A DNA stretch of 32,000 nucleotides from Cylindrospermopsis raciborskii Cr2010 (GTDB lineage: Bacteria > Cyanobacteriota > Cyanobacteriia > Cyanobacteriales > Nostocaceae). The notes under the pieces were generated by a model. The model saw nothing but the letters and a program-made list of their open reading frames with translations. It searched no databases and was not told the DNA's origin. Position 1 is the first letter of the stretch; each line of letters begins with the position of its first letter. Shown here piece by piece: positions 4,544-20,397 of the stretch. The DNA is taken from contig NZ_CP065936.1 of NCBI RefSeq assembly GCF_003367075.2, forward strand, positions 2,820,001 to 2,852,000, written 5' to 3'. Made by a program: the position numbers and the translations under genes.

Positions 4544-5374
4544 TTAACTGTTTGTTGATACGCGACCATAGAATAAACCGCGAATCTTCACTTCCTTGGG
4601 CTCACCAGCACCCAAATCCGTATCAGAGGGTTGCTCACTCTCGAAAGTGCCAGCTATTTCACCAGTAGAATTGTCCACTCTAGATACTTGTAAAGAAATC
4701 TTGCCTTGGAGAATTTCTGTGCGCTTCACATTAGTACGAGTTAAATCATCAGCATCGGATTGAGCTGGTAAAGCCACAGCATTGTCATAGCCACTTACCA
4801 CCCCACGACCTTTAGGATCAAGGAAAGCAGCTCCACGATAGGAAGGAACCTTAAACTTACCTTCAAAGTCAGTGGAAGTATTGATGTTAGTCGAGTTAGG
4901 TTGTGTTTGTGCAACTAAATCTTTAATAGTAAATAGGAAAGGTACTAGTTCGCCACCAGGTAGTTTCACGGTAATAGCTTGGAAGTCAAAACCATCTTTT
5001 TCCACAAAAGTCAAACTATTATCTGGATTTATTTTTAGGTCCCCTTGCACTTGGTCAATGGTGGATGTGTATCTAGTCAACAATCTACCAGGTACAAATT
5101 CCGCTTCTTGTCGTTTATTAGCTGGTTCTTCTTTGACAAAGTAACTAGTAGGTTCTAAGCAAAGCTCACTAATGGTATAAGACTGGTTACTTTCTAAATT
5201 AATAGAGCCACGACTAACCTCTGATAACTGAGGACACTTGTTAGCTAAACCAGTTCCTCTAATTTCTTCATAAGTTAGTAGATCCTTGCTGCTGGATGAG
5301 GGAGCATCACTGCAAGCGGTGATCAGACCCAAGCATAAAGCTAAGAAGGCAATTATTAAAGCACGATATCTCAT
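4544..5374 (-). CDS. psbO: photosystem II manganese-stabilising protein PsbO
   Basis: Hallmark PsbO motifs: LTYEEIRGTGLANKCPQL, FLDPKGRG and GEIAGTFESEQPSDTDLGA. The track start at 5386 is a TTG, so I use the ATG at 5374 (MRYRALIIAFLALCLGLITAC...). Confidence 0.93.
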   Translation of the reverse strand: MRYRALIIAFLALCLGLITACSDAPSSSSKDLLTYEEIRGTGLANKCPQLSEVSRGSINLESNQSYTISELCLEPTSYFVKEEPANKRQEAEFVPGRLLTRYTSTIDQVQGDLKINPDNSLTFVEKDGFDFQAITVKLPGGELVPFLFTIKDLVAQTQPNSTNINTSTDFEGKFKVPSYRGAAFLDPKGRGVVSGYDNAVALPAQSDADDLTRTNVKRTEILQGKISLQVSRVDNSTGEIAGTFESEQPSDTDLGAGEPKEVKIRGLFYGRVSTNS

Positions 5375-5688
5375 GGTCAACCTCAATGTCGTTAATATCT
5401 AAGTTGTAAAACTGCTCTACATTCAAACTACCATTGAGGGGAGCATCAATCAATTGACCAATTAACGATGATAATTAATCAAGTAAGGTTAAACCGGGAG
5501 TGTTAGCCCAATCTCTGGGCTAAAAGCGGTTTATCGGCGTTTTAAATAGGCAGTTTATATGGTGATGTTATCCTGGAGTAAGGTTCTGTTATTCCAGCTC
5601 CTGCAAATTTTCGAGGAGCGAGCATAGCAAAAAGTGCCTCAAATGTCAAGCCGTCCACAAGGACGGGGTCTAAAACCCGTAATTTCCG

Positions 5689-6069
5689 ATGAAGAAAGAC
5701 CAAAATCTGCCGTTGGAAGATTCATCCAGCAGTTTACAAGCAATTAATAATGCAGTTAGGGAAGCAGTTACAGCTTGTCAAGGTGAGACAAAAAACTTAC
5801 TAAATTTATTAAGAGAATTAGAGTATTTACATAAAGAAATTCGTGATGGAGTTTTTCAGGATAGTCTACCGGAAAATCGTCAAGAACTATATAGCCTTCT
5901 GAAAGATATTGAATCTACTGGTGGATGGCCCTATATTGAGCGTATGCGATTGCAATGGTTTTTAGTAAACTTAGCTACTAAAACAAATGGCTGTGATGCG
6001 GAAATAGAAATTTCCCATCCTCAACCTCGTACTGATGATACTCAAAGCAATAAAAGCAATATAGAATAG
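5689..6069 (+). CDS. hypothetical protein (126 aa) upstream of ftsQ
   Basis: ATG ORF, same strand and 58 nt upstream of ftsQ. Predicted helical (LLNLLRELEYLHKEIRDGVF..). No recognised domain. Confidence 0.5.
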   Translation: MKKDQNLPLEDSSSSLQAINNAVREAVTACQGETKNLLNLLRELEYLHKEIRDGVFQDSLPENRQELYSLLKDIESTGGWPYIERMRLQWFLVNLATKTNGCDAEIEISHPQPRTDDTQSNKSNIE

Positions 6070-6127
6070 TAAGCCAATCATGGTTGTGTCTGATACCAAG
6101 AATTGCAAAAACTAGAAAGGGGTTGTA

Positions 6128-7006
6128 ATGACAGACATGTTATCGGTTTCTCGTCGGGATTTGCTCAAACGGAGACAAAAATTGCGTCGCCATAGACAGA
6201 TGAAAATTCTCACAGGTGTTTGGCGAATTCTAGCCACTAGTAGCATTGCAGGGGGAATGTTTTGGATAATATTGGGACCTGTTTGGGTGATCACAACTCC
6301 CGGACAAATTTTGATGAGGTCGGGGAATCAACTACTACCCCAGAAAACAGTCCAAAGACTGCTGCAATTTTCTTATCCCCAGTCCCTATGGCGAATTAAA
6401 CCTGCTGCAATTGCCCAATCCCTGGAAAGACAACCAATTATTGCCCAGGCAATAGTTAACCGTCGTTTGTTTCCACCTGGGTTAAATATTGAGATTCAAG
6501 AAAGAGTACCGGTAGCAATGATTCAACTTTCGTTAAAAGCTAATGCAACAAATTGTGTCTCCAATTCTCAGGTCTCTTCAAAAAAAGTCACCTCACCCGC
6601 AATTCCGTGTTCCCAAAGTCCCAAAGGTGATGATATAAATTTAATAGATGCCAGTGGAAACTTGATCCCCTGGGAAAAATATACCGCCTTCAATCCCCAG
6701 GGTAAATTACCTGCTTTGAAAGTATTAGGTTCACCAGAACAATATCGCCCTTACTGGGTTCCGGTGTATCAAGCCATCCAAGACAATTCTTTAAACGTAA
6801 TGGAAATTGATTTTCGAGATCCGACAAATGTAATTTTCAAAACGGAATTAGGTACTGTACATTTGGGGATTCCCGTGGTGCAATTAGATCAGAAAATACA
6901 GAGGCTCAGGGAAATGGGTAATTTAAAAGCAAAATTTAAATCCGGGGAAATAGTGTATATTGATCTCCAAAGTCCTGATTACCCATTAGTACAATTGCAT
7001 CAATAA
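6128..7006 (+). CDS. ftsQ: cell division protein FtsQ (POTRA domain)
   Basis: Basic N-terminus followed by one TM helix (ILATSSIAGGMFWIILGPVWVI). POTRA-like IVNRRLFPPGLNIEIQERVPVAMI. Located immediately upstream of ftsZ, as is typical in cyanobacteria. Confidence 0.8.
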   Translation: MTDMLSVSRRDLLKRRQKLRRHRQMKILTGVWRILATSSIAGGMFWIILGPVWVITTPGQILMRSGNQLLPQKTVQRLLQFSYPQSLWRIKPAAIAQSLERQPIIAQAIVNRRLFPPGLNIEIQERVPVAMIQLSLKANATNCVSNSQVSSKKVTSPAIPCSQSPKGDDINLIDASGNLIPWEKYTAFNPQGKLPALKVLGSPEQYRPYWVPVYQAIQDNSLNVMEIDFRDPTNVIFKTELGTVHLGIPVVQLDQKIQRLREMGNLKAKFKSGEIVYIDLQSPDYPLVQLHQ

Positions 7007-7164: not shown

Positions 7165-8463
7165 ATGACACTTGATAATAACCAAGAGCTTACTTATAAA
7201 AACTCCCAATCTTTTGGACAACCGGGGTTATCCTTATCAGTTAATTCTAGTAATCCTTTTGGCGGTTCTGGGCTAAACTTAGGACAGGGTAGCGATAATA
7301 CAAAGATGTTGGAAGCTAAACGGATTGGGGAAATTGTTCCTGGAAGGGTCGCCAATATTAAGGTAATTGGTGTTGGTGGTGGCGGAGGTAATGCAGTGAA
7401 CCGGATGATTGAGTCTGATGTGACCGGGGTGGAGTTTTGGTCCATTAATACTGATGCTCAGGCTCTAACCTGGGCTAATGCATCAAGTCGTCTGCAAATC
7501 GGGCAAAAATTAACTAGGGGTCTAGGTGCTGGGGGTAATCCCTCCATTGGTCAAAAAGCAGCGGAGGAGTCCCGTGATGAAATTGCTACCGCTTTGGAGG
7601 GGGCAGATTTGGTATTTATTACTGCTGGTATGGGGGGTGGTACAGGTACGGGTGCTGCTCCCATAGTGGCGGAAGTAGCTAAGGAAATGGGTGCCCTGAC
7701 AGTGGGGGTGGTTACCAGACCATTCGTCTTTGAGGGACGACGACGGACTAGTCAAGCAGAACAGGGTATTGAAGGATTGAAAAGTCGAGTAGATACTTTA
7801 ATTATTATCCCTAATAATAAACTTTTGGAGGTAATACCTGAACAAACTCCCGTACAGGAGGCGTTCCGCTACGCTGATGATGTATTGCGTCAGGGGGTGC
7901 AGGGTATTTCTGATATTATCACAATCCCAGGTTTAGTCAATGTTGATTTCGCTGATGTGCGGGCAGTTATGGCTGATGCTGGATCTGCTTTGATGGGAAT
8001 TGGTGTGAGTTCTGGAAAATCCAGGGCCCGGGAAGCAGCAATTGCAGCTATTTCATCACCTTTGCTAGAATCCTCCATTGAGGGTGCGAGGGGGGTAGTG
8101 TTTAATATTACCGGTGGCAGCGATCTCACACTTCATGAGGTGAATGCAGCTGCGGAAACTATTTATGAAGTAGTTGATCCCAATGCTAATATTATTTTTG
8201 GGGCGGTAATTGATGATAGACTACAAGGAGAGGTAAGAATTACTGTGATTGCCACTGGCTTTACCGGGGAAGCTCCCGTGCCCACCCCCCAGACTACTAT
8301 TAGTTCTAGAGGGTCTGGTACACCAGCTAAAAAACCAGCACCTCAACCTCCGGTTAATCAACCACCACAACCAACTAACCTAACTCCCCCGCCCTCCAAC
8401 AAGCTTCCCGACATACCCGACTTTTTACAAAGGAGACGTCCTAATCCCCGCAATAATGAGTGA
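7165..8463 (+). CDS. ftsZ: cell division GTPase FtsZ
   Basis: Motifs [17 protein letters not shown], tubulin signature [17 protein letters not shown], and the C-terminal conserved peptide [10 protein letters not shown]. About 60-aa N-terminal extension. Confidence 0.97.
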
Positions 8464-9402
8464 CAACACTTCCCTAGATACATGGGTGCCATTGAGACGG
8501 TCTATTTCCCTGATTCCTGTGGGACTGGTAACATTGACTTCCGTCAAATAGCCACCAATGATGTCAATGCCAACAAAAATTAACCCATGCTGACGCAGTT
8601 TATGGGCTAATAGTTGACAAATTTCTTCCTCTCTGGTGGTGATTTCTGTTTTTGCTACTGTGCCACCCGCAGCCATGTTATTGCGAAAATCATTGCCACT
8701 AGCTAGACGATTGAGCGCCCCCATAGGTTGACCATTAATTAAAATGATTCGCTTGTCCCCATTTTTCGCCTCTGGCAAATAGGTTTGCACCATGACTGGT
8801 AATCGCCCCCGCATGGTGCTAATCTCAACTATGGAATTAAAATTGCGATCGCCTGCCTGTACAATTAGTATTCCTTCCCCGGCCTTATTACCTAAGGGCT
8901 TAATAACTGTTGTGCCTTTTTTTTCCACAAAGTCCCGAATTACATCTTTATCTGCACTAACAATAGTTTCAGGAATTGCTTCTTTGAATTGTAGTGCATA
9001 CATTTTTTCATTAGCAGATCTGATACCACTAGGAGAGTTAACCACCAGAGTTTTGCCAGGATCAATGTAGTCTAAAATATAAGTAGCATAGAGGTAGGAA
9101 TCATTAACTGGGGGATCTGTCCTCATAAATACAGCGTGCATAGATTCCAAGGGAGCAAAAACAGCCTGACCCAAATTATACCAAGGATTTGCTGCTACCC
9201 AACGTCCCTGCACCAATTCGACTGGAGTTATTTCTATAGGTTGAAGTAGGGCCCAGGCTTGACCGTGGATAACATTCAGTAGGTTAACCTGAGTTATCCA
9301 GACCTCATGTCCTAGGATTTGTGCTGCTTCCATCAAGGCCACACTGGTATCATGACAGGGGTCTAGCTGATGGATAGGATCAATAATAAAAGCTAATTTC
9401 AC
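8425..9402 (-). CDS. gshB: glutathione synthetase (ATP-grasp)
   Basis: The N-terminus (M)[27 protein letters not shown] and the C-terminus [23 protein letters not shown] match prokaryotic GshB. GTG start at 9402, 2 nt after the grxC stop. Confidence 0.92.
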
Positions 9403-9404
9403 TG

Positions 9405-9674
9405 CTAGTCCTCAGAATTTTGCAGTAGTGGATCCAGACCCCCTCTACGGTCTAGGGCGTGAATATCATCACAACCACCAATGTGGACGTCATTAATAAA
9501 AATTTGGGGTACAGAGCGTTTTCCATTTGCCCGCATAGCCATTTTCCCCCTTGCTTCCTCATTCCCATCAATTTTGTATTCGGTAAATTGCACCCCTTTA
9601 GATGTAAGCAAGCCTTTGGCAAGTATACAAAATGGACAAGCACTCCAAGTATAAATTTCTACTTTTGCAGTCAT
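9405..9674 (-). CDS. grxC: glutaredoxin 3 (CPFC active site)
   Basis: 89 aa. Motifs VEIYTWSACPFCILAK, RSVPQIFINDVHIGGCDD. GGAAGG Shine-Dalgarno upstream of the ATG. Confidence 0.9.
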   Translation of the reverse strand: MTAKVEIYTWSACPFCILAKGLLTSKGVQFTEYKIDGNEEARGKMAMRANGKRSVPQIFINDVHIGGCDDIHALDRRGGLDPLLQNSED

Positions 9675-9762
9675 AACCTTCCTAGATACTCCCTAATTCT
9701 AGATAATTTCCCAACTTAACCTTATGAAAATTCTACATCATCAATTTGACATTGCCATGTTT

Positions 9763-11571
9763 TTAAAATCCTTGTTCTTGTATCATTGGTTCTAGAGCAT
9801 ATTCAATCAACTGTGACAGTCGTAGTCTGAGAGTTTCCAACCCCAAACGCTGACCAGCTGATATAAACACACTCAAAGGAAATTCCTCCCGTGCGGAAAC
9901 TAGTACTTCATTATTGACCCGATCAATTTTATTAAAAACAACCAAAGCAGGTCCAGGAGTAATAGGCATTTGAGCTAGAATTTCTCGTACTGATCTAATA
10001 TGACTTAACCAAGCAGGGTGGGATAAATCAACTAGATGTATTAAGGCGTCTGCTTCCGTAACTTCCTCCAAAGTAGCACGAAAGGCATCCATCAAAGAAT
10101 TGGGCAACTCATGGATAAACCCCACGGTATCCGTAATTAAGGCCTCCCGAACTTGATGGTTTTCCCCTTGGGGAATAACTAAACGACGGGTGGTAGGGTC
10201 AAGGGTGGCAAATAGCTGATCAGCTGTATAAACCTGGGCATTAGTTAGGGCGTTAAGTAGAGTAGACTTACCCGCATTAGTATATCCCACCAAAGCCACC
10301 GATGGTATTTCCCGATGTTGTCGTTTTTGACGCAAACGGCAACGATGGGCCTGCAATTGGTTAACTTCCTGTTGTAGTCGGGAAATACGTCTTTGAATGG
10401 CTCGTCTTTCCGTTTCTAGTTTGGTTTCACCAGGTCCACGAGTTCCTATTCCGCCTCCCAACCGCGACATAGCCCTCCCCCTACCAGTTAATCGTGGTAG
10501 CATATATTCCAGTTGAGCTAGTTCTACTTGTAACTTCCCAGCTCCCGATTGAGCCCGCTGGGCAAATATATCCAATATTACTTCTGTACGATCAACTACT
10601 CTAATACCAATCTGGGATTCTAAGTTTCGTACTTGAGCGGGTGATAAATCCCGATCAAAAACAATCAGATTGGCCCCCTGAGTTTGAGCAGTTAAAGCCA
10701 CCTCCTGGACTTTTCCTTGACCAATAACCGTTTGGGGATGAATGCGCGATCGCTTTTGCTGGATGCTTTCCAACACCTCTCCCCCTGCTGTATCTACTAA
10801 CCTAGCCAGCTCAGCTATAGTATCTTGGAATTTTTGGTCACTTACATCATCAGTGAATACTCCTACGACGATGACTCGGTCATGATCGCCATTTACTTCC
10901 TGTCCAACATATTCCCGCTCAAATTCTGCCTCTAAACCCTCTACCAAACCCAGAAAATCCATTTGGGCAATTGCATCTAAGCTTAGGGGAGGTGAAACGT
11001 GAAAATCAGGAGATCTCGATTCCCCAACAGTCATAACCGATGACGGACTAAAAGACAGTCTTGTACTATTACACACCAAATGAGCTAAGTACACCCCTTT
11101 AACATAACCAGTTGCTCCCCCACCTCTTTTTGTAAATCCTGTGCCCGTAAGATTTAAAATGACCAAAGCATCCAATCGCTGTAACAGCATTGCTGTGAGT
11201 GCTGCTTCATGGGGAGGTTCTGATTTGAGATTTGTTGCTATGCAGCGAATCCCACTGAGTCTTTCTGCACCATAGCGTGGAATTTCCATGGGAGGAATTT
11301 GAGTTTGACGCACAGTGCCTACACCAACTCTAATCACTTTTCCTTTACGATTAATGTAAGAGCAAATAGGTTGGTTTATTTCTGTACTAATTGCTGCCAG
11401 CCTTTGAGCAAACTCAGATGTAGTAATAAAATTACCTGGTACGCGCTGATGATACAGTCGTTGTAATTGTCTGAGTTGGCTGGATTTTAAACCCTGTAGA
11501 TTTCCGAAAATAGTCTCTATAGGCCCATGACCAGTTACCTGGCCCTCCAAATCATGTTTATATTCTAACAA
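9763..11571 (-). CDS. hflX: GTPase HflX (long cyanobacterial form)
   Basis: HflX N-domain with glycine-rich segment GGGIGTRGPGETKLE. G1 GYTNAGKSTLLNAL, G3 DTVGF, G4 NKID. No ATG is available; the track start is the TTG at 11571, so the 5' end is uncertain. Confidence 0.88.
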   Translation of the reverse strand: MLEYKHDLEGQVTGHGPIETIFGNLQGLKSSQLRQLQRLYHQRVPGNFITTSEFAQRLAAISTEINQPICSYINRKGKVIRVGVGTVRQTQIPPMEIPRYGAERLSGIRCIATNLKSEPPHEAALTAMLLQRLDALVILNLTGTGFTKRGGGATGYVKGVYLAHLVCNSTRLSFSPSSVMTVGESRSPDFHVSPPLSLDAIAQMDFLGLVEGLEAEFEREYVGQEVNGDHDRVIVVGVFTDDVSDQKFQDTIAELARLVDTAGGEVLESIQQKRSRIHPQTVIGQGKVQEVALTAQTQGANLIVFDRDLSPAQVRNLESQIGIRVVDRTEVILDIFAQRAQSGAGKLQVELAQLEYMLPRLTGRGRAMSRLGGGIGTRGPGETKLETERRAIQRRISRLQQEVNQLQAHRCRLRQKRQHREIPSVALVGYTNAGKSTLLNALTNAQVYTADQLFATLDPTTRRLVIPQGENHQVREALITDTVGFIHELPNSLMDAFRATLEEVTEADALIHLVDLSHPAWLSHIRSVREILAQMPITPGPALVVFNKIDRVNNEVLVSAREEFPLSVFISAGQRLGLETLRLRLSQLIEYALEPMIQEQGF

Positions 11572-11582
11572 AAAGTTGAAAT

Positions 11583-12908
11583 TTACAAAAGGGTTGCTAG
11601 AGCTTCTCTAAATTCCTGGATTCCCTGAATCAGGGGGTGAATATCATACCAGCGCTGTATTTCCCCTTCTTTATCCAAATAGCGATATTCTAATAAGCAA
11701 CGATTAAACATTAGATTGCGATACTGATCATCATTAAGGATGCGTTTGGAAATGGATACCTCTGCTAATAAATACCATTGATGATTTTCTACAGCACGGC
11801 GGTAGGTATCTCTAGCTTGAGTAATAGCTCGTCGAACTGCTCTTTCAGATATGGGTAAATCTTGGGTGCGTCCAATGGCATCCTGGGTCAATAGTAATAG
11901 ATTTCGGACATGACCTCCGCTCATTAAACAAAGTTTTTCCAAAGTGTCTGGACTGTCAAAAATTTCGGTTTCTATAGATATATTTGGTGCAAATTGCCGA
12001 ACTCGTCTCCCAATTACCTCGGTTAACCTTTTCAAACCTGGTTGATAAACTTCTCCTTGAGGAGTGCGCACCATCACCATTGGTAAAACTTGGGGATCAC
12101 CATAAATGTCGCGTAGATCAGTAGCTCTAGTGGAATAAACCATAGCAATGGGAACTGTGTAGATGAGGTGACAGTCCAGAGACTTGAGCTGCTCACACCG
12201 GTCTAGAAAAACCTCTTCATAATTAGTCCGATTTCCTTCCTTGACCAGTATCATCCGATCTAAGTTATCAACAATTACTGCTAATTGGTGTTGTTTCGAT
12301 GGCAATCGTTTCTTCGCGTCTCCAATAAATTCATTTAACACCCTAATTAAAGTTACCGTGTGGGGGTTTACCTTCTCTCGAATCTGTTGACGTAATTCGG
12401 GGACTGCTCTTAGGTTAGCTGTTAACTTAGCAAACTGAGTAATTTGCATCTCTATGTTCATATCCTCAAGATGAATTTCTGTCAGTGCTAAATCTTTTAG
12501 ATCTTGCCAACGCTCTTTCAGCCAGTTTATTACTGGTTGAGGATTACCTATTTGTTGTAAATCTTTAAGTAACCTGCGGGTACAAGCCAGAAGAATATCG
12601 GTATAATGAGCATCCTCTGAATCTATATCCTCTTCATCGGCGGCAAAATAAATTACGTAAAACTGCCTCTCTTCCAGATATTTCTTCAATCTTAGTAATT
12701 CAGTAGATTTACCTGCTCCTCTGTGTCCAGAATACAGTTGACAAGTATTTCCCCGTGCCAGCTGAATGCGATTTCCCAATTCCTCTAAAATATCTGCCTC
12801 ACCTCTGACGTCTTGACAGTCTACATAGTTAGGATCTCCTGCTGACAGAGGTTGGAACGGGTTAAAGGCATTATAAAGGTTTTTGAGCAGTTCCGCATTT
12901 TGGGACAT
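11583..12908 (-). CDS. P-loop NTPase, AAA+/STAND-like (ORC/Cdc6- or Arch-ATPase-like), function unknown
   Basis: 441 aa, ATG start. Walker A GHRGAGKST (nt 12728-12702), Walker B-like LAVIVDNLDR, sensor-like LIYTVPIA, lid-like MSGGHVRNLLLL, and a helical, possibly winged-helix C-terminus. No effector or TM domain recognised. Confidence 0.7.
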   Translation of the reverse strand: MSQNAELLKNLYNAFNPFQPLSAGDPNYVDCQDVRGEADILEELGNRIQLARGNTCQLYSGHRGAGKSTELLRLKKYLEERQFYVIYFAADEEDIDSEDAHYTDILLACTRRLLKDLQQIGNPQPVINWLKERWQDLKDLALTEIHLEDMNIEMQITQFAKLTANLRAVPELRQQIREKVNPHTVTLIRVLNEFIGDAKKRLPSKQHQLAVIVDNLDRMILVKEGNRTNYEEVFLDRCEQLKSLDCHLIYTVPIAMVYSTRATDLRDIYGDPQVLPMVMVRTPQGEVYQPGLKRLTEVIGRRVRQFAPNISIETEIFDSPDTLEKLCLMSGGHVRNLLLLTQDAIGRTQDLPISERAVRRAITQARDTYRRAVENHQWYLLAEVSISKRILNDDQYRNLMFNRCLLEYRYLDKEGEIQRWYDIHPLIQGIQEFREALATLL

Positions 12909-12935
12909 AAGTAAACAGCCTGGGTTAATTTGAGG

Positions 12936-14513
12936 TCAATCGTGAAAAGTTTTATTAATTAGGGCCTGAAAGCGTGCATCTTCTCTAATGCGATCAAAAT
13001 CAGGATCAGCTTTTGCCATTTGTGTAAATTGTTCAGGTTTAAGACTAACTGCATTTTCTAAGTTTTCTAGTGCTTCTTGAATTTTACCCTGAACTGCATA
13101 ACAACAGGCTTTGTTATAAAAAGCATATTGATCATCTGGCTTGATTTTCAGAGCTTGATCATAAGAAAAGATAGCTTCTTCTATGTGTCCTAGATCCTCC
13201 AATGCATTGCCTCTATTGTTCCAGCTATAGTGGTCATCTGGTTTCAGTTTCAAGGCCTGATCATAAGATAAAAGTGCCGCTTCGTTTTGTTTGAGTTTTT
13301 TTAGTACAACTCCCCGATTATACCAAGCATAGTAGTCATCGGGTTGCAAGCTTAGCGCCTGATCATAACAAAAAACTGCCTCCTGATATCTGCCTAAACT
13401 TCTCAAGGCAATGCCTCTATTGTTCCATACATTACTCTCATCGGGTTTAATTTTTATGGCTTGACCATAAGATAAAATTGCCTCCTCATTACACCCTATA
13501 TTCCTGAGTGCATTACCCCTGTTGTACCAGAAATAGTGATCATCGGTCTTAATTTTTATAGCTTGATTGTAAGATAAAATTGCTTCTTGATCTCGATGTA
13601 GTTTACGCTGGCAATTACCTAGTGCATACCAGCAAAACGGGTCATCTCGTCGTAATTTCAGAGCCTGGCGATAGGATACAATGGCGGCTTCATACCTGGA
13701 TAAACTAAACAGTGCATGTCCGTGATTACACCAAGCACCATGATCATCTGGTTGAAGTTTCAGTTCCTGCTCATAAAATGTAATGGCTGTTTCGTATTCG
13801 TTAGCGGAATACAGTAGATTCCCCATTTCAAATAACAATCTAGCTTTGTTACTATCATTTTGGTATTTTTCTGTCAGCAGTTCTTGAATTTCCAACATTG
13901 TTTCGATTTTCTGTTGGGGAGTAAGCTCTAAATATTTTTTATAGTCTCCCTCCATAATTAAACGACGAGATTCTTCGTCTACCAATTCTGCTGTGGTTGG
14001 TAAATCATACACTCCAGATCGCCAATCAAAAAAGTCTGGGGCGCGATGAATCAAATAATTTAGAGAAAATGACCGTAGTAAGAACACAAAGCAAAATGAG
14101 AAATCATCTCTGAATCTTTCTCGCTGTTGATTGAGATGATTTAGTATGGGGGGCACCTTGGTCAAGTTGGTGAACTGTCCCTCCGTAACTTCACCAAAAT
14201 TCCTTTTCTCATACTTGTATAGGGAGTATTCTAAACCTTTAACTAGGAGGATATCAATAGTTTGTCCCTGCACATAGTTTTTTACATGCTCATAGAACTT
14301 CTCTATTGGTTCCCATAAGTTTAGTAAGGCTATTTTTTTGTTAGCTAGGTCACGACTAATATGTTGAGCAAAGTTATCAGCTTCAATAGGTGTGCACTGC
14401 ACAAAGTACAGACCAAATCCCACTTTTCGTTCCAGAGTGGAAATTAAATCCTGATATATTTCCTGTGGATCTGGTGGTAGATCATCATCCCAGTTAGAAT
14501 AGTTGGGTTTCAT
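12936..14513 (-). CDS. TPR-repeat protein with ~215-aa N-terminal domain of unknown function (possible degenerate NTPase-like module)
   Basis: 525 aa, ATG start. Eight 34-aa TPRs (aa ~222-495) follow the consensus W-N-RG-AL--LGRY-EA--SYDQALK-KPDD. C-terminal cap is DPDFDRIREDARFQALI. The N-domain has strand-like GFGLYFVQC and IDILLVKGLE but no GK[ST]. Confidence 0.8.
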   Translation of the reverse strand: MKPNYSNWDDDLPPDPQEIYQDLISTLERKVGFGLYFVQCTPIEADNFAQHISRDLANKKIALLNLWEPIEKFYEHVKNYVQGQTIDILLVKGLEYSLYKYEKRNFGEVTEGQFTNLTKVPPILNHLNQQRERFRDDFSFCFVFLLRSFSLNYLIHRAPDFFDWRSGVYDLPTTAELVDEESRRLIMEGDYKKYLELTPQQKIETMLEIQELLTEKYQNDSNKARLLFEMGNLLYSANEYETAITFYEQELKLQPDDHGAWCNHGHALFSLSRYEAAIVSYRQALKLRRDDPFCWYALGNCQRKLHRDQEAILSYNQAIKIKTDDHYFWYNRGNALRNIGCNEEAILSYGQAIKIKPDESNVWNNRGIALRSLGRYQEAVFCYDQALSLQPDDYYAWYNRGVVLKKLKQNEAALLSYDQALKLKPDDHYSWNNRGNALEDLGHIEEAIFSYDQALKIKPDDQYAFYNKACCYAVQGKIQEALENLENAVSLKPEQFTQMAKADPDFDRIREDARFQALINKTFHD

Positions 14514-14548: not shown

Positions 14549-16957
14549 TTATCTGGGAGCCATCTGGTTTTGTGGTTTCACACCTCTCAACAAAAGAGAG
14601 TTAGTCACCACGCTAACGGAACTAAAAGCCATAATCGCAGCAGCACTAGAGGGAGTTAGGACAAAATGTAAGCTGGGTAAGAGAACCCCAGCAGCTAAGG
14701 GGATGGCAATGGTGTTATAGGCAAAGGCCCAAAATAGGTTTTGACGAATTTTAGTGAAAGTTTTACGAGCAAGTTGGATAGATGCTACCACATCACTCAA
14801 GCTGTCACCCATAAGGACAATTTCCGCACTTTCCATAGCCACGTCTGTTCCTGAACTCAGGGCAATTCCCACATCCGCTTGGGATAAAGCGGGTGCATCG
14901 TTGATACCATCTCCCACCATAGCTACCACACAGGAATTATCACCTACATTTAAGCTACCCTGCTGGAGAGAACGAATTAGTCCAGCTTTTTGCTCTGGAG
15001 TAACGCCAGCAATAACATTGGTACTATCGAGACCAAGCTGTTGGGCAATCACAACTGCTGCTTCTAACCTATCACCGCTGAGGACTATAACATGTAAACC
15101 CATTCTTTGCAAGTGGTTTACTGTTAATTTGGCATCGGGTCTAATGGTATCACTAACAGCTATTAAACCTGCCAAAATGTCATCCACAGCAACACCAATG
15201 ACTGTTTTTCCTTCCTTTGCCAGTTTTTGTCCTTGTTCTTGGGTAGTTGTATTGATAGTAATTCCATGACTGTTTAACCATTCCCAGTTACCCAACAGCA
15301 CACTTTTCCCCTCTACCATAGCGGAAACTCCCATACCTGGTTCCGTGTAAAAATTCATGGCATGGGGGATGGGTAAATTTAGCTTTTCTCCCGACTGCTG
15401 TATGGCTTTCGCTAGGGGATGACAAGTGCCTTTTTCCACCGCTGCTGCTAATTGCATCAAATTGGTAGTGTCTATATCTGTTAGTGGTAGACAGTCTGTA
15501 ACTATGGGATTACCTGTGGTAAGAGTACCAGTTTTGTCAAATACGATGGTGTTTAAATGGTGAACCTTTTCTAATACATCCCCACCCTTGATTAGTAACC
15601 CAGATTCTGCTCCCACACCAGTCCCTACCAAGATAGCTGTGGGTGTGGCTAGTCCTAAAGCACAGGGACAAGCTACTACTAAAACTGCGATCGCCAGTTT
15701 TAAACTAATGAGCAGTGCCGAATTTTGATCATTGAGTAGGGGGATAGAATGATTACCCATGACCATTCCAGAAGTAATATACACCTCTGGCCAAACACGA
15801 GTTCCTATAAAATACCAGAATGCCCAGGTTAGAAAAGAAGCTGTTAAAACAGCATAAGTAAAATAACCAGCAATGGTATCAGCCAATTTTTGCACAGGAG
15901 CTTTACGAGTTTGGGCACTTTCTACCAGAGCAACAATCTGAGCTAGGACAGTATCTTCACCGATTTTCCTAGCTACAATTGAGACAGTTCCTGACTGATT
16001 AATAGTTCCCGCTGCAACAGAATCTCCTGGTTGTTTAATTACAGGAACAGCTTCCCCAGTCAACATTGATTCATCAACGGTGGTTTGTCCAAACTGCACC
16101 TGACCATCGACGGGAATTTTATCCCCTGGTAGTACTTGTAACCACTCTCCCACTCGTACCTGGTCAGCTGGTATTTCAATAATATTAATGTTGGGACTAA
16201 CTGCTAATTTCTGGCCATCAGGGTTGACAATTAGTCTAGCAATTTGTGGTCTTAGGGCTAACAATTGATGAAATGCTGATGCAGCGCGCCCTTTAGCTTG
16301 TTTCTCCAAGGTTTTACCCAAGAGGATAAAGCCCAACATCATTACTGGTTCATCAAAGAAACAGTCCCAACCCATCCGGGGAAATAAAAGTGCAACTAAA
16401 CTAGTAATATAAGCAGTTAAAGTTCCTAAAGCGATTAAGGTATTCATATTTGGGGATCCTCGTCGCCAACCCAACCAACCATCTATAATGATTGGACGAC
16501 CAGGAAACAGGAGTGCAAGGGTTGCCAATGCACAATGAAACCAAATGTTATTTAACCCAATGGTACTCAAAATAGGAAATAAATGACTGCCAAAGTGTCC
16601 CAGTCCTGAAAACAGCAACAGTCCAGAAGCAACTATTAACTGCATAAAAGCAGATCTCATTTCTTGGTCTTGCTTTCCAACCCTGCTGAACCCTTGAGAG
16701 TTTCGCATTTCTGAGGGGAACCCTTTCGCTGTTAATACCTGTGCCAGCGTATCCCCCTCAACAGCATCTTCTATTTCTACCACAGCAATTTCTGTAGCTA
16801 GATTCACACAGGCGCTTTTTACCCCCGGGTGTTGGGTTAACTGTGTTTCTACCGCTTTTACACAGCCAGCACACTTCATACCGCTAACATCGAGTATGAC
16901 TTTTCTAGTTGTTGCAGCGCTTTCTTCTGTCAATTCATTTTTTTGTGCAAGTTGCAT
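14549..16957 (-). CDS. copper(I)-translocating P1B-type ATPase (CtaA/PacS/CopA family)
   Basis: N-terminal HMA domain GMKCAGC, TM6 CPC (ACPCALGLATP), DKTGTLT, GDGINDAP, TM7 YN (FAYNTIAIP), and TM8 MxxSS (MAFSSVSV), which together indicate Cu(I) specificity. Confidence 0.93.
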   Translation of the reverse strand: MQLAQKNELTEESAATTRKVILDVSGMKCAGCVKAVETQLTQHPGVKSACVNLATEIAVVEIEDAVEGDTLAQVLTAKGFPSEMRNSQGFSRVGKQDQEMRSAFMQLIVASGLLLFSGLGHFGSHLFPILSTIGLNNIWFHCALATLALLFPGRPIIIDGWLGWRRGSPNMNTLIALGTLTAYITSLVALLFPRMGWDCFFDEPVMMLGFILLGKTLEKQAKGRAASAFHQLLALRPQIARLIVNPDGQKLAVSPNINIIEIPADQVRVGEWLQVLPGDKIPVDGQVQFGQTTVDESMLTGEAVPVIKQPGDSVAAGTINQSGTVSIVARKIGEDTVLAQIVALVESAQTRKAPVQKLADTIAGYFTYAVLTASFLTWAFWYFIGTRVWPEVYITSGMVMGNHSIPLLNDQNSALLISLKLAIAVLVVACPCALGLATPTAILVGTGVGAESGLLIKGGDVLEKVHHLNTIVFDKTGTLTTGNPIVTDCLPLTDIDTTNLMQLAAAVEKGTCHPLAKAIQQSGEKLNLPIPHAMNFYTEPGMGVSAMVEGKSVLLGNWEWLNSHGITINTTTQEQGQKLAKEGKTVIGVAVDDILAGLIAVSDTIRPDAKLTVNHLQRMGLHVIVLSGDRLEAAVVIAQQLGLDSTNVIAGVTPEQKAGLIRSLQQGSLNVGDNSCVVAMVGDGINDAPALSQADVGIALSSGTDVAMESAEIVLMGDSLSDVVASIQLARKTFTKIRQNLFWAFAYNTIAIPLAAGVLLPSLHFVLTPSSAAAIMAFSSVSVVTNSLLLRGVKPQNQMAPR

Positions 16958-17615: not shown

Positions 17616-18959
17616 CTAGAAACTATAACTAAAGTCCTCAACCAACATTCCGGGTACTAAACTACCACCCAATTGACGTTTGGTGTATGTACCTACTTCG
17701 GGGATTAGATCTTGAAAGTTGGTAAAATCAACTAATTTTTCTCCCCAAAAGTCATACAAACTTTCATCGAAACGTAGATTTTCTATGGGGGCGACCATCT
17801 CTCCATTTTCTACCCAAAAACAAGCATACCTGGTCATTCCGGTGATTCTACCAGTTTGACGGTTGCTCCAGTTTAAATAATGTAAATTGGAAACATATAA
17901 CCCAGTTCCTAAACTGGCCAGAATATCTCCAAAATCCAAGTTGCCTATCTTGATTTCGGGGGAGCGTAATGTTTCTGAACTGTTTGCAGCATTGCTGACT
18001 TTATTATATTCCTTAGCAGTGCGGGAATTGACCAAACTATTGACTAAACCCCCATTTTCGATTAGGGTTAATTCCTGTGGTGATATTTCTCCTAAACTGT
18101 TAAATCTGGGGGTCAAACCAGCGCTAAAGTTCTCCTTTAAATTAAACTTGGGTGAAAGCTGTTTTTCACCTCTTGACAATGGTGCTAAAGCACTATTACC
18201 CTGCTGTATAGAAGATTCACTAATAGCACCCCAAGATAACATATCCAATAGTTCAGCTACCGCACCAGGAGCAAAGTAGGTTCTATATTTACCCCTGGGC
18301 AGTTTCCTAGGTTCACGGGATAATAAAGACAATTGTTTTTTGCCATCCGCGATTTTATCAATGTATGCTGATTGTTTCCATTCTCTCCCAGCAAAGGTGG
18401 CTTTGACTGCTTTTTTCGGTGCAATAATTAAAGAATAATCTAAATTAAAAGAATTGGTAACAAACCAATGGCTTTTTCCTCTAGAATCTCCATATCCCCT
18501 TATAATGATACCCCCAGCATACATACCAGTAAAATCTAAATTTTCTAGGGATGTTAAAATGCTATCGGGCACTTTTTCTGGTGCTAATAATTCACCTCTA
18601 TGTATTTCCCTAATGCTTCCCTCTCCCCCTGGTAAAACTATGTAGGGATCTACTGGTAACATGGAGATTTCTTCCCTTAGTTCTTCTAAATTTTGACATG
18701 CAACTTCCCGATCTATCTCCCAATTACCAGTGAAGGGAAAATGACAAAAACTACTGCGATGATCAGCCATTAAAGTTAAATGCACAGAACCATCATACAC
18801 TACTCCCGTTTGTCTAAGTTTTCCCTGATTAAACCGGGTAAACTGACTCCTTTCACTGCTAAGATTAAGTGTAAAATCTTCCTGATCTGATTTTTTGCTT
18901 AACAGCATTTCCCTAAGATTATGAAAGTTTTTTTCTAATTTGAAACCATCTACTTCCAT
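17616..18959 (-). CDS. pmbA: TldD/PmbA-family protein, PmbA (TldE)-like subunit
   Basis: Family-typical C-terminus GTGLYVSNLHYLNWSNRQTGRITGMTRYACFWVENGE and no HExxxH motif. The ATG at 18959 lies 1 nt after the tldD stop; the track start at 18974 is a TTG. Confidence 0.8.
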   Translation of the reverse strand: MEVDGFKLEKNFHNLREMLLSKKSDQEDFTLNLSSERSQFTRFNQGKLRQTGVVYDGSVHLTLMADHRSSFCHFPFTGNWEIDREVACQNLEELREEISMLPVDPYIVLPGGEGSIREIHRGELLAPEKVPDSILTSLENLDFTGMYAGGIIIRGYGDSRGKSHWFVTNSFNLDYSLIIAPKKAVKATFAGREWKQSAYIDKIADGKKQLSLLSREPRKLPRGKYRTYFAPGAVAELLDMLSWGAISESSIQQGNSALAPLSRGEKQLSPKFNLKENFSAGLTPRFNSLGEISPQELTLIENGGLVNSLVNSRTAKEYNKVSNAANSSETLRSPEIKIGNLDFGDILASLGTGLYVSNLHYLNWSNRQTGRITGMTRYACFWVENGEMVAPIENLRFDESLYDFWGEKLVDFTNFQDLIPEVGTYTKRQLGGSLVPGMLVEDFSYSF

Positions 18960-18960
18960 C

Positions 18961-20397
18961 TTACCCTCCACCAAAAACTTCTATATTTGTAAACACACAA
19001 GGGGGTGAACCATGACCTACCCATATAGCTTGATTTGGCTCTCCCTTCCCACAAAATGGCGTGCCATACATTTGCCAATTCTCAAAATTACCCACCTGGA
19101 CTAAACTATGCCAAAATTGTGGTGTTGTTGCTCTGTAATTGGGATTTCTTAAAGTTTTTGTCAGTTGACCATTTTCAATTAGTTTGGCATATTCACACCC
19201 AAATTGGAACTTATGGCGAAGATCATCTATGGACCAAGAGCGATTGGACTCCATATAAACACCATGTTCTATACCCTCAATCATTTCCCCAAAACTAGTA
19301 TCCCCTGGCTCTAAATTAAGGTTAGCCATTCTATCAATTGGTGGACGATTCCAAGAGCAAGCGCGAGCACAAGCTACTCCTGGTAAACCAGAACGAGCTT
19401 GACTTTCTAAACTGCCCAAACCCCTTTGCAAAATACCATCTTGAATTAGATATTATTTTGTAGCTTTTGCACCAGTATCATCAAATTGATAACTGGCCGA
19501 TTCTCCTTCAACAGTGGGATCAAAGGTAATATTCATTAAAGGTGAGCCATATTGTAATTTGCCAAAATCCTCTGGGTTCACAAAACTACCACCCGCGTAG
19601 TTCCGTTCATCACCTAAAATGCGGTCTATTTCTAAAGGATGTCCCACACTTTCATGAATTTGTAGCATCATTTGATCTGGTGCTAACACCAAATTTGTCT
19701 CTGTATTGGGACATTCTGGAGCATTTAATAATTCTATAGCTTGTTCAGCAACTTGTTGAACCTTATCCCATAATTTATCTTGTTTTAATACTTCCCATCC
19801 GCCTTGATAACAATTGGCGTGCATTCCATGATTACTTCGCTGTTGCACCACCCGACCATCCTGGGCTATTACCCCAAAATGATTGCCTACAGAAGTGATT
19901 TTTTGGTAAATTTCCGAGCCATTGCTACTAACAAACCAGGTCTCTTTTTCACTTGCATTAATGTGGCCACTGGTTTGGACTATTTGATCACTAATTTTTA
20001 GTCCATGACAAATACGGATGAGTAAATCATTTATTTCCCCTGGACTCAGAAAATTTAACGGTTGATCCAGGGGTGTATTATATTCACCAACCATTGCTGG
20101 ACGGGTGTTTTTTTCCAGTGGATATATCCGAAATTTACTAGCTGCAACTGCCTGTTGGTAAGCTATTTGAGCCGCGTGCTTGAGTGACAATGAGGTTAGG
20201 CAATTAGTAGCTGCATAACCGATGCTACCATTAACCATCACTTCTATCATTGCTCCCCTTGTTAAGGATTTACCGTTGCTTCTAGGTAGACCATCTCTCA
20301 CATAGTAGTCTCTAGCAACTTCTTTAACAGCACGAATTCCCATCCAATCAACGGTGGTATCAAACTGATCAATAGCTTGTGTTAATTCTTTCCACAT
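18961..20397 (-). pseudogene. tldD: TldD-family metalloprotease interrupted by one in-frame TAA (19455-19453); track fragments 19453-20397 and 18961-19431
   Basis: The N-fragment carries the catalytic HESVGHPLE motif and the C-fragment carries the GTPFCGKGEPNQ region. Reading through gives ...FDDTGAKATK*YLIQDGILQRGLG..., colinear with the E. coli TldD pattern (as recalled) FDDEG..T...LIENGIL. Both fragments are in the same frame. A sequencing error is also possible. Confidence 0.65.

Follow-up and report, generated by a model that had tools for sequence, protein, structure and literature searches.

A conserved pair of cyanobacterial genes predicted to encode a split, NLR-like two-protein AAA+ switch

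What do two neighbouring genes of the cyanobacterium Cylindrospermopsis raciborskii Cr2010 do, one of which encodes an ATPase and the other a tetratricopeptide repeat (TPR) protein, and do they do it together? The genes lie on the minus strand between a gene for a Cu-ATPase and hflX, in a stretch of 32,000 nucleotides of contig NZ_CP065936.1 (positions 2,820,001 to 2,852,000) that was analysed as a whole and is here called the window. A preliminary description, made from the letters of the window, had read them as a possible split STAND-like switch, with the active NTPase in one chain and a pseudo-NTPase and TPR sensor in the other. The open reading frames (ORFs) confirm the coordinates and the shared strand given there, and the gaps of 35 nucleotides between the Cu-ATPase and TPR protein genes, 27 between the TPR protein (hereafter the partner) and the ATPase, and 11 between the ATPase and hflX. 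From sequence and predicted structure the pair appears to be an uncharacterised split, NLR-like two-protein AAA+ switch. That the two genes are two halves of one nucleotide-driven switch, a split NLR/STAND-like sensor, is the reading that we favour, with somewhat better than even confidence.

12936-14513, minus strand: partner gene, encoding the TPR protein of 525 amino acids (ORF; eight TPR units by Pfam; a homologue adjoins the ATPase gene at 79/80 genome and 74/83 metagenome loci)
12909-12935, minus strand: spacer of 27 nucleotides, from the partner stop to the ATPase start (ORF positions)
11583-12908, minus strand: AAA+ ATPase gene, 441 amino acids (ORF)

The two genes are found side by side at almost every locus surveyed. 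The survey covers the best 80 loci of each of two scans, one of species-representative genomes and one of metagenomes with a diverse alignment; three further contigs from a look-up bring the metagenome set to 83. A homologue of the N-terminal domain of the partner (the N-domain) adjoins the ATPase gene at all but one of the 80 genome loci, at ATPase identities of 61–87%, and a partner lies directly downstream on the same strand at 74 metagenome loci, at identities of 32–60% and GC contents of 0.35–0.65. Overall the two are adjacent at about 153 of 163 loci, far more often than by chance, which answers the question of the preliminary description whether they always adjoin. Of the nine metagenome loci at which it is missing, six are short partial contigs or stop less than about 200 nucleotides past the end of the ATPase gene. 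Partners that score weakly with the cyanobacterial hidden Markov model (HMM) match over the full domain, with E-values of 1e-28 to 1e-64, when an HMM is used that was trained without them. The ATPase precedes the partner at 56/80 genome loci, with a start/stop overlap of 4 nucleotides. When the ORFs of the genome loci are clustered just the ATPase and the partner are common to all, and no third conserved gene is found among the 163 loci. One homologue (P0264) is a single-chain fusion of the ATPase, the N-domain and 12 TPRs, and the similarities of the ATPase and of the N-domain to those of the window co-vary (Spearman 0.53, p 1.6e-6). Gene linkage and fusion suggest that the ATPase and partner form a complex. 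As the pair is adjacent in about 150 genomes and metagenome contigs, it probably acts as one switch.

The order of the window, with the TPR gene first, is derived. The closest loci (L001–L007) come from Sphaerospermopsis, Anabaena cylindrica, Anabaena azotica, Trichormus azollae (L006) and three Nostocales or cyanobacterial metagenome-assembled genomes. At these loci a full-length partner lies upstream of the ATPase, with an N-domain 74–77% identical to that of the window. They also hold a truncated ORF of 177–212 residues, comprising the N-domain only, which is 48–54% identical to the N-domain of the window and evolves faster. This ORF occupies the ancestral downstream slot (about 7323-7960 in each locus) and overlaps the ATPase stop by 4 nucleotides; it may be decaying as a duplicate or still serve as a mini-partner. 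The full partner upstream together with the truncated copy downstream indicates that the pair stayed linked through duplication or rearrangement. The truncated ORF is absent from the window, and as a result of its loss hflX starts 11 nucleotides past the ATPase.

The ATPase is 97% identical to a protein of Cylindrospermopsis raciborskii and 61–87% identical to its orthologues across the Cyanobacteriales. At E ≤ 1e-3 its family comprises 2966 clusters (50% identity), and at the stricter E ≤ 1e-30 it comprises 419. The clusters looked up have generic names (ATP-binding protein, AAA family ATPase) apart from one mis-annotation as PilB. The protein contains the following features.

12702-12728, minus strand: Walker A motif GHRGAGKST, residues 61–69 (translation)
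12309-12605, minus strand: helical insertion in the NTPase core, residues about 102–200 (AlphaFold2 model)
12255-12284, minus strand: Walker B motif LAVIVDNLDR, residues 209–218 (translation)
11901-11921, minus strand: lid motif SGGHVRN, residues 330–336, candidate sensor 2 (conservation)
11586-11846, minus strand: C-terminal winged-helix-like domain, residues 355–441 (AlphaFold2 model)

The translation bears out the motifs first read here, GHRGAGKST, VIVDNLDR and GGHVRN (residues 331–336). In an alignment of 60 diverse homologues G64, G66, D214, R302 and G332 are invariant (60/60), and K67, R35 and G331 (59/60 each), T251 (53/60) and R335 (52/60) are nearly so. Position 217 is aspartate or glutamate in 59 of the 60, and position 334 in the lid is proline in 16, giving a GGxP-like motif. 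The AlphaFold2 model (pLDDT 77, pTM 0.63) has an alpha/beta core, an insertion, a helical lid and a C-terminal winged-helix-like domain. The insertion consists of helices 102–117, 124–140, 152–168 and 170–200 between beta2 and the Walker B strand. We infer a KAP-like position for it from weak matches to KAP_NTPase and RdrA. The C-terminal domain is modelled as helices at 355–401 and a beta hairpin (405–411/417–423), with pLDDT mostly 75–95, and the hairpin carries the invariant Y408 and W420.

The closest structures of the ATPase model in the PDB by Foldseek are Cdc6/Orc1 proteins (E 2.7e-6 to 1.2e-5, TM-score 0.32–0.41; 7tjh_I, 1fnn_A and 2v1u_A at E 2.7e-6 to 6.9e-6), with BrxC, TnsC, RFC and clamp-loader subunits and mS29 lower down. 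By sequence the ATPase has matches to the clamp-loader gamma/tau subunit at the level of the P-loop only, and the Pfam ORC-CDC6-like model matches three of the 60 relatives weakly. A profile of the 60 homologues finds RADAR RdrA (8FNU), a KAP-type ATPase, as the best NTPase-core match in the PDB (E 1.3e-4, positions 57–216). The protein falls below every Pfam cutoff, including those of AAA_16 (29.9 vs 32.6 bits), ATPase_2 (20.7 vs 33.2) and KAP_NTPase (15.3 vs 20), and the best of the Pfam STAND models, nSTAND_NTPase5, gives it 13.3 bits where 34 are required. None of the 60 relatives belongs to a family among the curated models of PADLOC, NCBIfam and Pfam, where STAND models reach 3.2e-7 at best. 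Both its fold and its profile place the ATPase nearer to Cdc6/Orc1 and the KAP-like NTPases than to NB-ARC or NACHT. We regard it as a predicted catalytically competent AAA+ ATPase of the Orc/Cdc6-STAND-KAP neighbourhood, from a large uncurated family.

The proposal that this ATPase has lost its own arginine finger is weakened. No arginine is fixed across the family in the finger region, which has some arginine in 41 of the 60 homologues and none in 19; R261 and R266 are conserved there in the clade of the window.

In some close homologues the ATPase is extended at its N-terminus by about 245–275 residues that match no family (L045, 5254-7404; P0241, residues 1–245). The ATPase of L045 has no detected partner gene within 6 kb. 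Three other homologues (P0306, P0307 and P0338) have unannotated N-terminal regions of about 570 amino acids.

The partner is composed of an N-domain and a repeat array with a cap.

13860-14513, minus strand: predicted pseudo-AAA+ domain, residues 1–218, alpha/beta base and helical lid, no Walker A (AlphaFold2 model, Foldseek)
14043-14045, minus strand: codon of R157 in the HRAPDF motif (YLIHRAPDF), candidate trans-acting arginine (translation, conservation)
13029-13844, minus strand: eight TPR units of 34 residues, residues 224–495 (translation; Pfam TPR_1, eight stretches)
12939-13028, minus strand: TPR end-of-group cap DPDFDRIR...RFQALI, residues 496–525 (NCBIfam NF047558 TPR_END_plus)

The N-domain has no sequence match in Pfam (single sequence and each of 26 family members) or in the PDB (single sequence and a profile of the 26), and 13 of its columns are invariant across 60 homologues. 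Its AlphaFold2 model (pLDDT 81.8, pTM 0.80) runs helix, beta1, helix, beta2, helix, beta3, helices, beta4, helix, beta5 and a three-helix bundle. The top 50 Foldseek matches to the PDB are all AAA+ ATPases (probability up to 1.0, TM-score 0.30–0.45). They include T4 gp44, Hda, MgsA, RuvB, FtsH, CbbX and IstB as well as the nucleotide-free clamp-loader delta subunit (1jr3_D) and a delta-prime-like protein (2gno). At the site of the P-loop after beta1 the family has C-[N/S/T]-P instead (VQCTPIEAD in the window), and none of 84 sequences has a glycine-rich loop or lysine there. Because the model matches AAA+ ATPases only and there is no P-loop, we call the N-domain a predicted pseudo-ATPase, with an AAA+ base and lid. 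This agrees, at the level of predicted fold, with the earlier suggestion that about 215 residues of the protein form an NTPase core without a P-loop.

Other positions of the N-domain are strongly conserved. N128, R131 and D160 are each present in 83 of the 84 sequences, an arginine at position 156 or 157 in 82 and W164 in 79, and E95 at the end of beta3 is acidic in 83 (74 Glu and 9 Asp). By the secondary structure of the model, and not by its coordinates, R157 lies at the end of helix alpha4, which joins beta4 to beta5, and this is the place of the arginine fingers of AAA+ proteins. The contrast between this conserved arginine and the finger region of the ATPase, in which none is fixed across the family, is compatible with a pseudo-AAA+ domain that donates R157 in trans to the ATPase.

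The repeat region is as first described, with eight TPRs by Pfam and a cap that matches NF047558 over residues 464–520 (E 7.8e-27; 93 bits, cutoff 32). In the window and its clade the array is a stable set of eight diverged units, which in the window are 26–68% identical to one another, save the last (12–29%), and Tandem Repeats Finder detects no repeat there at the DNA level. In contrast, the arrays of orthologues from Nostoc, Calothrix, Tolypothrix and Microcoleus are tandem repeats of 102 bp with 70–89% matches and 4.7–15.8 copies. Partner length among orthologues varies from 341 to 928 amino acids. Many database entries of the partner are partial and end within the array; those at contig ends probably result from the 102-bp repeats. 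Differences between units concentrate at TPR positions 2, 5, 9, 12, 13 and 17, most of which we take to face the concave ligand-binding surface, as in characterised TPRs. At these positions the ratio of non-synonymous to synonymous substitution between units is about 0.84, and above 1 in the youngest arrays, compared with 0.29 at the others; since the positions were picked from the same data, the test is biased and the ratios are suggestive only. The 102-bp arrays were seen in the partner genes of L009, L014, L020, L039, L054, L062 and L077, at about 8040-9950.

The C-terminal part of the partner varies across the family. Among 52 partners from metagenome loci TPRs occur in 39, a bona fide nSTAND1 NTPase module in 26 and WD40 propellers in 18. 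In the short form, as in the window, the N-domain is followed by TPRs; in the long form it (about residues 1–230) is followed by a helical/TPR region, nSTAND1 (about 500–850) and WD40 (about 950–1650). The ATPase too is found with further domains, CHAT and TRADD-N at the N-terminus of one homologue (P0362) and an additional AAA_16-TPR module in another (P0308). These partner C-termini (TPR, or TPR with nSTAND1 and WD40) and the CHAT/TRADD-N fusion follow an NLR-like logic. The conserved unit is the ATPase with the pseudo-AAA+ domain, joined to a variable sensor scaffold. Because many partners carry their own nSTAND1 and WD40, the ATPase cannot be seen just as the NTPase missing from the TPR protein.

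A low-GC metagenome contig (L083, 1790-7803) has a partner of N-domain and few TPRs with a further region bearing a P-loop-like SSGGGKT, and two more STAND-like/TPR genes follow it. This suggests a bigger NLR-type cluster around some members of the family.

How might such a pair work? We suggest that the dead AAA+ domain docks on the live ATPase in the manner of a neighbouring protomer. Docking would couple assembly of the ATPase, or its turnover of ATP, to a ligand on the concave surface of the TPRs, which would probably be a protein or peptide. The delta-prime subunit of the clamp loader donates an arginine in trans, and R157 of the dead domain may complete the active site of the ATPase in the same way. 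The output would be a nucleotide-dependent assembly or conformational change relayed through the winged helix of the ATPase, and relatives with CHAT/TRADD-N would signal through these fused domains instead.

Several points weigh against a split switch of this kind. No enzymatic effector or output domain is recognisable in the pair, as the preliminary description had already noted. The assignment of the N-domain to the AAA+ fold comes from a predicted structure with modest TM-scores, and the trans-acting arginine from topology only; the ATPase in the clade of the window conserves R261 and R266 in a finger region of its own. Profile-profile comparison of the N-domain with the ATPase gives no relationship (probability 0.1%, or 0.8% with deeper alignments), so the two halves cannot be called paralogues. 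High conservation also sits uneasily with the conflict-system character of the distant relatives. The split STAND-like switch has come through the checks on co-conservation of the pair, on the N-domain fold and on membership of characterised families, where scans of Pfam, PADLOC, NCBIfam and the PDB place neither protein. The STAND part of the claim has fared less well, as many partners have an nSTAND1 of their own and the ATPase is nearer Cdc6/Orc1 and KAP.

The family also includes paralogous pairs, which bear on the cellular role. A second pair in Nostocales has an ATPase 35% identical to that of the window, 82–96% conserved across the order, with a long-form partner. These ATPases are annotated as KAP family and carry PF07693 matches. 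At L116, L122, L123 and related loci (P0442-P0561) the ATPase lies at 4989-6326 and the partner begins at 6296; the partner has at least 1,670 amino acids, being cut by the end of the locus, and comprises N-domain, TPR, nSTAND1 and WD40. The second pair co-occurs with the window type; Cylindrospermum stagnale PCC 7417 and Okeanomitos corallinicola are examples. Paralogues of the ATPase (23–35% identical, all below 36%) are also found on cyanobacterial plasmids, including conjugative ones, and the copy on pMB06 of Acaryochloris is beside NB-ARC and TIR genes. The long-form partners on plasmids are named 'ribosome assembly protein 4' or 'WD40 repeat protein' by PGAP. No orthologue of the window type was found on plasmids, and no family member at all in phages.

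The clade of the window looks like a slowly evolving, vertically inherited chromosomal function and not a mobile defence island. Its ATPase is about as conserved as HflX in the same loci, and the pair is intact in Trichormus azollae and Cylindrospermopsis, whose genomes are reduced, small or eroding. Slow evolution, vertical pattern, housekeeping context and retention in these two together argue for a domesticated or core role. Combining this with the switch, we tentatively read the pair as an NLR-type sensor turned into a core, vertically inherited cyanobacterial function, though we think this fuller account doubtful. The P-loop-less AAA+ domain, of a family not annotated before, would then be an obligatory docking partner for a dedicated AAA+ ATPase, possibly an arginine-finger donor, and the same module would be borne on bare TPRs or on nSTAND1-WD40.

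Both a housekeeping and an immune role are kept as readings. An anti-phage or abortive-infection system of the NLR/Avs type, in which the TPRs recognise a phage protein and the ATPase oligomerises to cause growth arrest or death, is in our view unlikely. It would fit the conflict-like domains of distant relatives (nSTAND1 and WD40 in partners, CHAT and TRADD-N fused to the ATPase) and the paralogues on conjugative plasmids, one of them near NB-ARC/TIR, and there is weak similarity to PADLOC PDC-S20, to mad8 and to RdrA of RADAR. TPR copy number differs between strains, and substitutions favour ligand-facing positions by the biased test described above. The orthologues themselves speak against defence, with ATPase identities of 61–87% across an order, close to the level of HflX, a stable chromosomal context of housekeeping genes, no occurrence found on plasmids or phages and an intact pair in T. 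azollae and Cylindrospermopsis. The pair has no effector domain, and the PADLOC, Pfam and NCBIfam models all score below threshold.

The fold of the ATPase raises another explanation, that the pair is an AAA+ machine which acts on DNA in the way of Orc/Cdc6, TnsC or clamp loaders, with a role in the chromosome or its replication. Here the winged helix would bind DNA, the pseudo-ATPase would be a delta-prime-like stator and the TPRs would recruit a client. The structural matches of the ATPase to Cdc6/Orc1, TnsC, BrxC, RFC and clamp-loader subunits, those of the N-domain to clamp-loader subunits, Hda and delta, and the winged-helix hairpin with its invariant tyrosine and tryptophan are all in keeping with it. 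AAA+ fold likeness, however, says nothing of the substrate, the surveyed loci have no conserved linkage to replication, repair or transposition genes, and the nSTAND1-WD40 and CHAT/TRADD-N found with relatives suit a signalling role better than the loading of DNA. We consider such a machine improbable.

A translation-linked module with the ribosome-associated GTPase HflX, which the preliminary description had raised, is very improbable. It draws on hflX starting 11 nucleotides past the ATPase stop in the window and lying 1.5–4.5 kb downstream of the pair at 24 Nostocales loci, and on a weak match of the ATPase model to mitoribosomal mS29/DAP3 (E about 1e-2). No hflX is present at the genome loci outside Nostocales or at any of the 83 metagenome loci, the distance varies and different genes intervene in Nostoc, and the tight spacing in the window reflects a lost ORF that close relatives keep. 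The Cu-ATPase neighbour is confined to the clade of the window and does not recur at the metagenome loci. On the synteny survey we reject a linkage of the pair to either gene, the first being local Nostocales synteny and the second a trait of that clade.

That the pair is two unrelated genes in a shared operon, the N-domain being a TPR-associated scaffold with no tie to the ATPase, is hardly credible given the adjacency at 32–87% ATPase identity and GC 0.35–0.65, the usual 4-nucleotide overlap, joint survival of rearrangement, fusion and co-divergence, although the two have no sequence homology and their pairing is read from sequence, with interaction as a prediction.

The neighbouring genes of the pair are as follows.

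14549-16957, minus strand: Cu-ATPase gene (ORF)
9763-11571, minus strand: hflX, 602 amino acids (ORF)

The 11-nucleotide gap before hflX assumes a TTG start, and likeness to other HflX proteins begins only at residue 17. A promoter and terminator scan found none in the 27-nucleotide spacer, with fewer sites than in shuffled sequence, and this says nothing on operon structure. The rest of the window is housekeeping: psbO, ftsQ, ftsZ, gshB, hflX, tldD/pmbA, cysS, a cobW-like GTPase and ribBA, together with a glutaredoxin-like ORF assigned by reading its translation.

Three side observations concern these neighbours. The hflX ORF has about 240 residues before its GTP-bdg_N domain (which starts at residue 250) that lack a Pfam match (10852-11571, minus strand); this extension is 63–75% identical in other cyanobacterial loci and contiguous there with the HflX core, and it does not match the HMM of the partner N-domain. 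A TldD/PmbA-type gene is split (18961-20397, minus strand) into an ORF of 314 amino acids (19453-20397) that covers domains 1–2 and stops at TAA, and one of 156 amino acids (18961-19431) that covers the second half of the C-terminal domain (profile positions 93–218). The break may mean a pseudogene, a gene truly divided in two or an error of sequencing; an intact PmbA/TldD paralogue follows at 17616-18974. The convergent genes ftsZ (7165-8463, plus strand) and gshB (8425-9402, minus strand) overlap by 39 nucleotides at their 3' ends (8425-8463).

What was a vague 'AAA ATPase beside a TPR protein' is now a defined module of two components, and it offers residues to test: K67 and D214 of the ATPase and R131, R157 and D160 of the dead domain. 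The pair joins two questions: how NLR-like signalling proceeds with no encoded enzymatic effector, and what dead AAA+/STAND domains are for. At least two paralogous pairs are conserved in Nostocales, and since the partner has TPRs only in one of them and nSTAND1-WD40 in the other, a simple and an elaborate version can be compared; genetic tools exist for some members of the order. If the role is housekeeping, it is an uncharacterised function across many cyanobacteria, kept even in reduced genomes. If the pair is an NLR-type sensor turned core function, heterotypic AAA+/pseudo-AAA+ coupling would be a new and widespread adaptor/effector principle of bacterial NLR-like proteins, in place of Death, TIR or EAD adaptors, and the pair would be a rare case of such a system retained universally and not patchily.

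How does the pair compare with known systems? STAND and NLR proteins (NB-ARC, NACHT, nSTAND1-6, Avs) resemble it in the P-loop core, lid, winged helix and TPR/WD40 sensor, in the N-terminal CHAT/TRADD-N of some relatives, and in repeat arrays that are internally conserved and variable in copy number. The ATPase has the P-loop core with intact Walker A and B motifs, and its model has a helical lid and a winged helix; the lid motif reads SGGHVR, and a proline at the GxP position is found in just 16/60 relatives. It differs in that the repeats are on the product of the neighbouring gene and fused to it in few proteins (P0264), in the big helical insertion in its core and in the many partners with an nSTAND1 of their own. 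None of the curated STAND models scanned reaches its gathering score.

Orc1/Cdc6 is the best structural match and has the same order of AAA+ base, lid and C-terminal winged helix. ORC assembles active and inactive subunits together. The pair is distinguished from it by the low TM-scores (about 0.35–0.40), by an ORC-CDC6-like model that is weak in three of 60 relatives and by the lack of a replication-gene link. The KAP family and RADAR RdrA (8FNU) share an insertion in the NTPase domain; RdrA is the best core match of the family profile, and the paralogues carry PF07693. The ATPase of the window scores below the cutoff for PF07693 (15.3 vs 20 bits), has no transmembrane segment on reading its sequence, and has no RdrB deaminase partner, there being no deaminase next to the pair in the window or the surveyed loci.

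The delta-prime and delta subunits of the clamp loader offer a mechanistic analogy to the partner, in that an AAA+ fold without nucleotide retains an arginine with which to work on an active neighbour. They have no sequence relationship to it, and the pair has no pentameric loader and an attached TPR array. By predicted structure the N-domain has the five-stranded alpha/beta base and helical lid of AAA+ proteins, and it lacks the Walker A after beta1 of an active P-loop NTPase. Defence models (PADLOC-DB 2.0, NCBIfam) do not include the pair, the only matches, at the level of noise, being PDC-S20 (E 5.6e-5, 20.8 bits) and DS41_1 (20.6 bits vs 370); at the family level the best match is 3.9e-7, with no system membership. 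We found no description of the pair in the literature, including papers on conflict systems, and no curated model, structure or paper for the ATPase family or the partner domain.

In the MoxR-vWA ternary systems an inactive STAND/AAA+-type component, iSTAND or iSTAND2, is constant, is coupled to an active AAA+ ATPase and is enriched in multicellular bacteria (Kaur et al., eLife 2020, 2021; PMC7159879, PMC8195603). MoxR and vWA partners are absent from the 163 loci, and the active partner here is not MoxR-like. The concept closest to the pair is the nSTAND2 two-gene system, in which adjacent genes encode an active and an inactive STAND NTPase (Kaur, Iyer, Burroughs, Aravind, eLife 2021, PMC8195603). 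The inactive NTPase has eroded nucleotide-binding motifs, keeps an arginine and is fused to a variable C-terminal module, and a hetero-oligomer is predicted; the two proteins are recognisably of one family of NTPases, and a mobile operon carries them with effectors, GT4 or HEPN, as the variable modules (PMC8195603). The pair likewise has adjacent active and inactive genes, an arginine kept in the inactive one and a variable C-terminal module. It is set apart from nSTAND2 by the description of that system and not by a sequence model: its halves have no detectable homology, its modules are sensors (TPR, nSTAND1-WD40), with GT4 and HEPN absent from the 25 most frequent families in the 52 partners, and its clade in the window is chromosomal and conserved. 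By the tests run the pair is not a member of NB-ARC, NACHT, nSTAND1-6 (nSTAND2 by its described layout), KAP, RADAR or any PADLOC system and probably not of Orc/Cdc6, and it appears to work like a split NLR.

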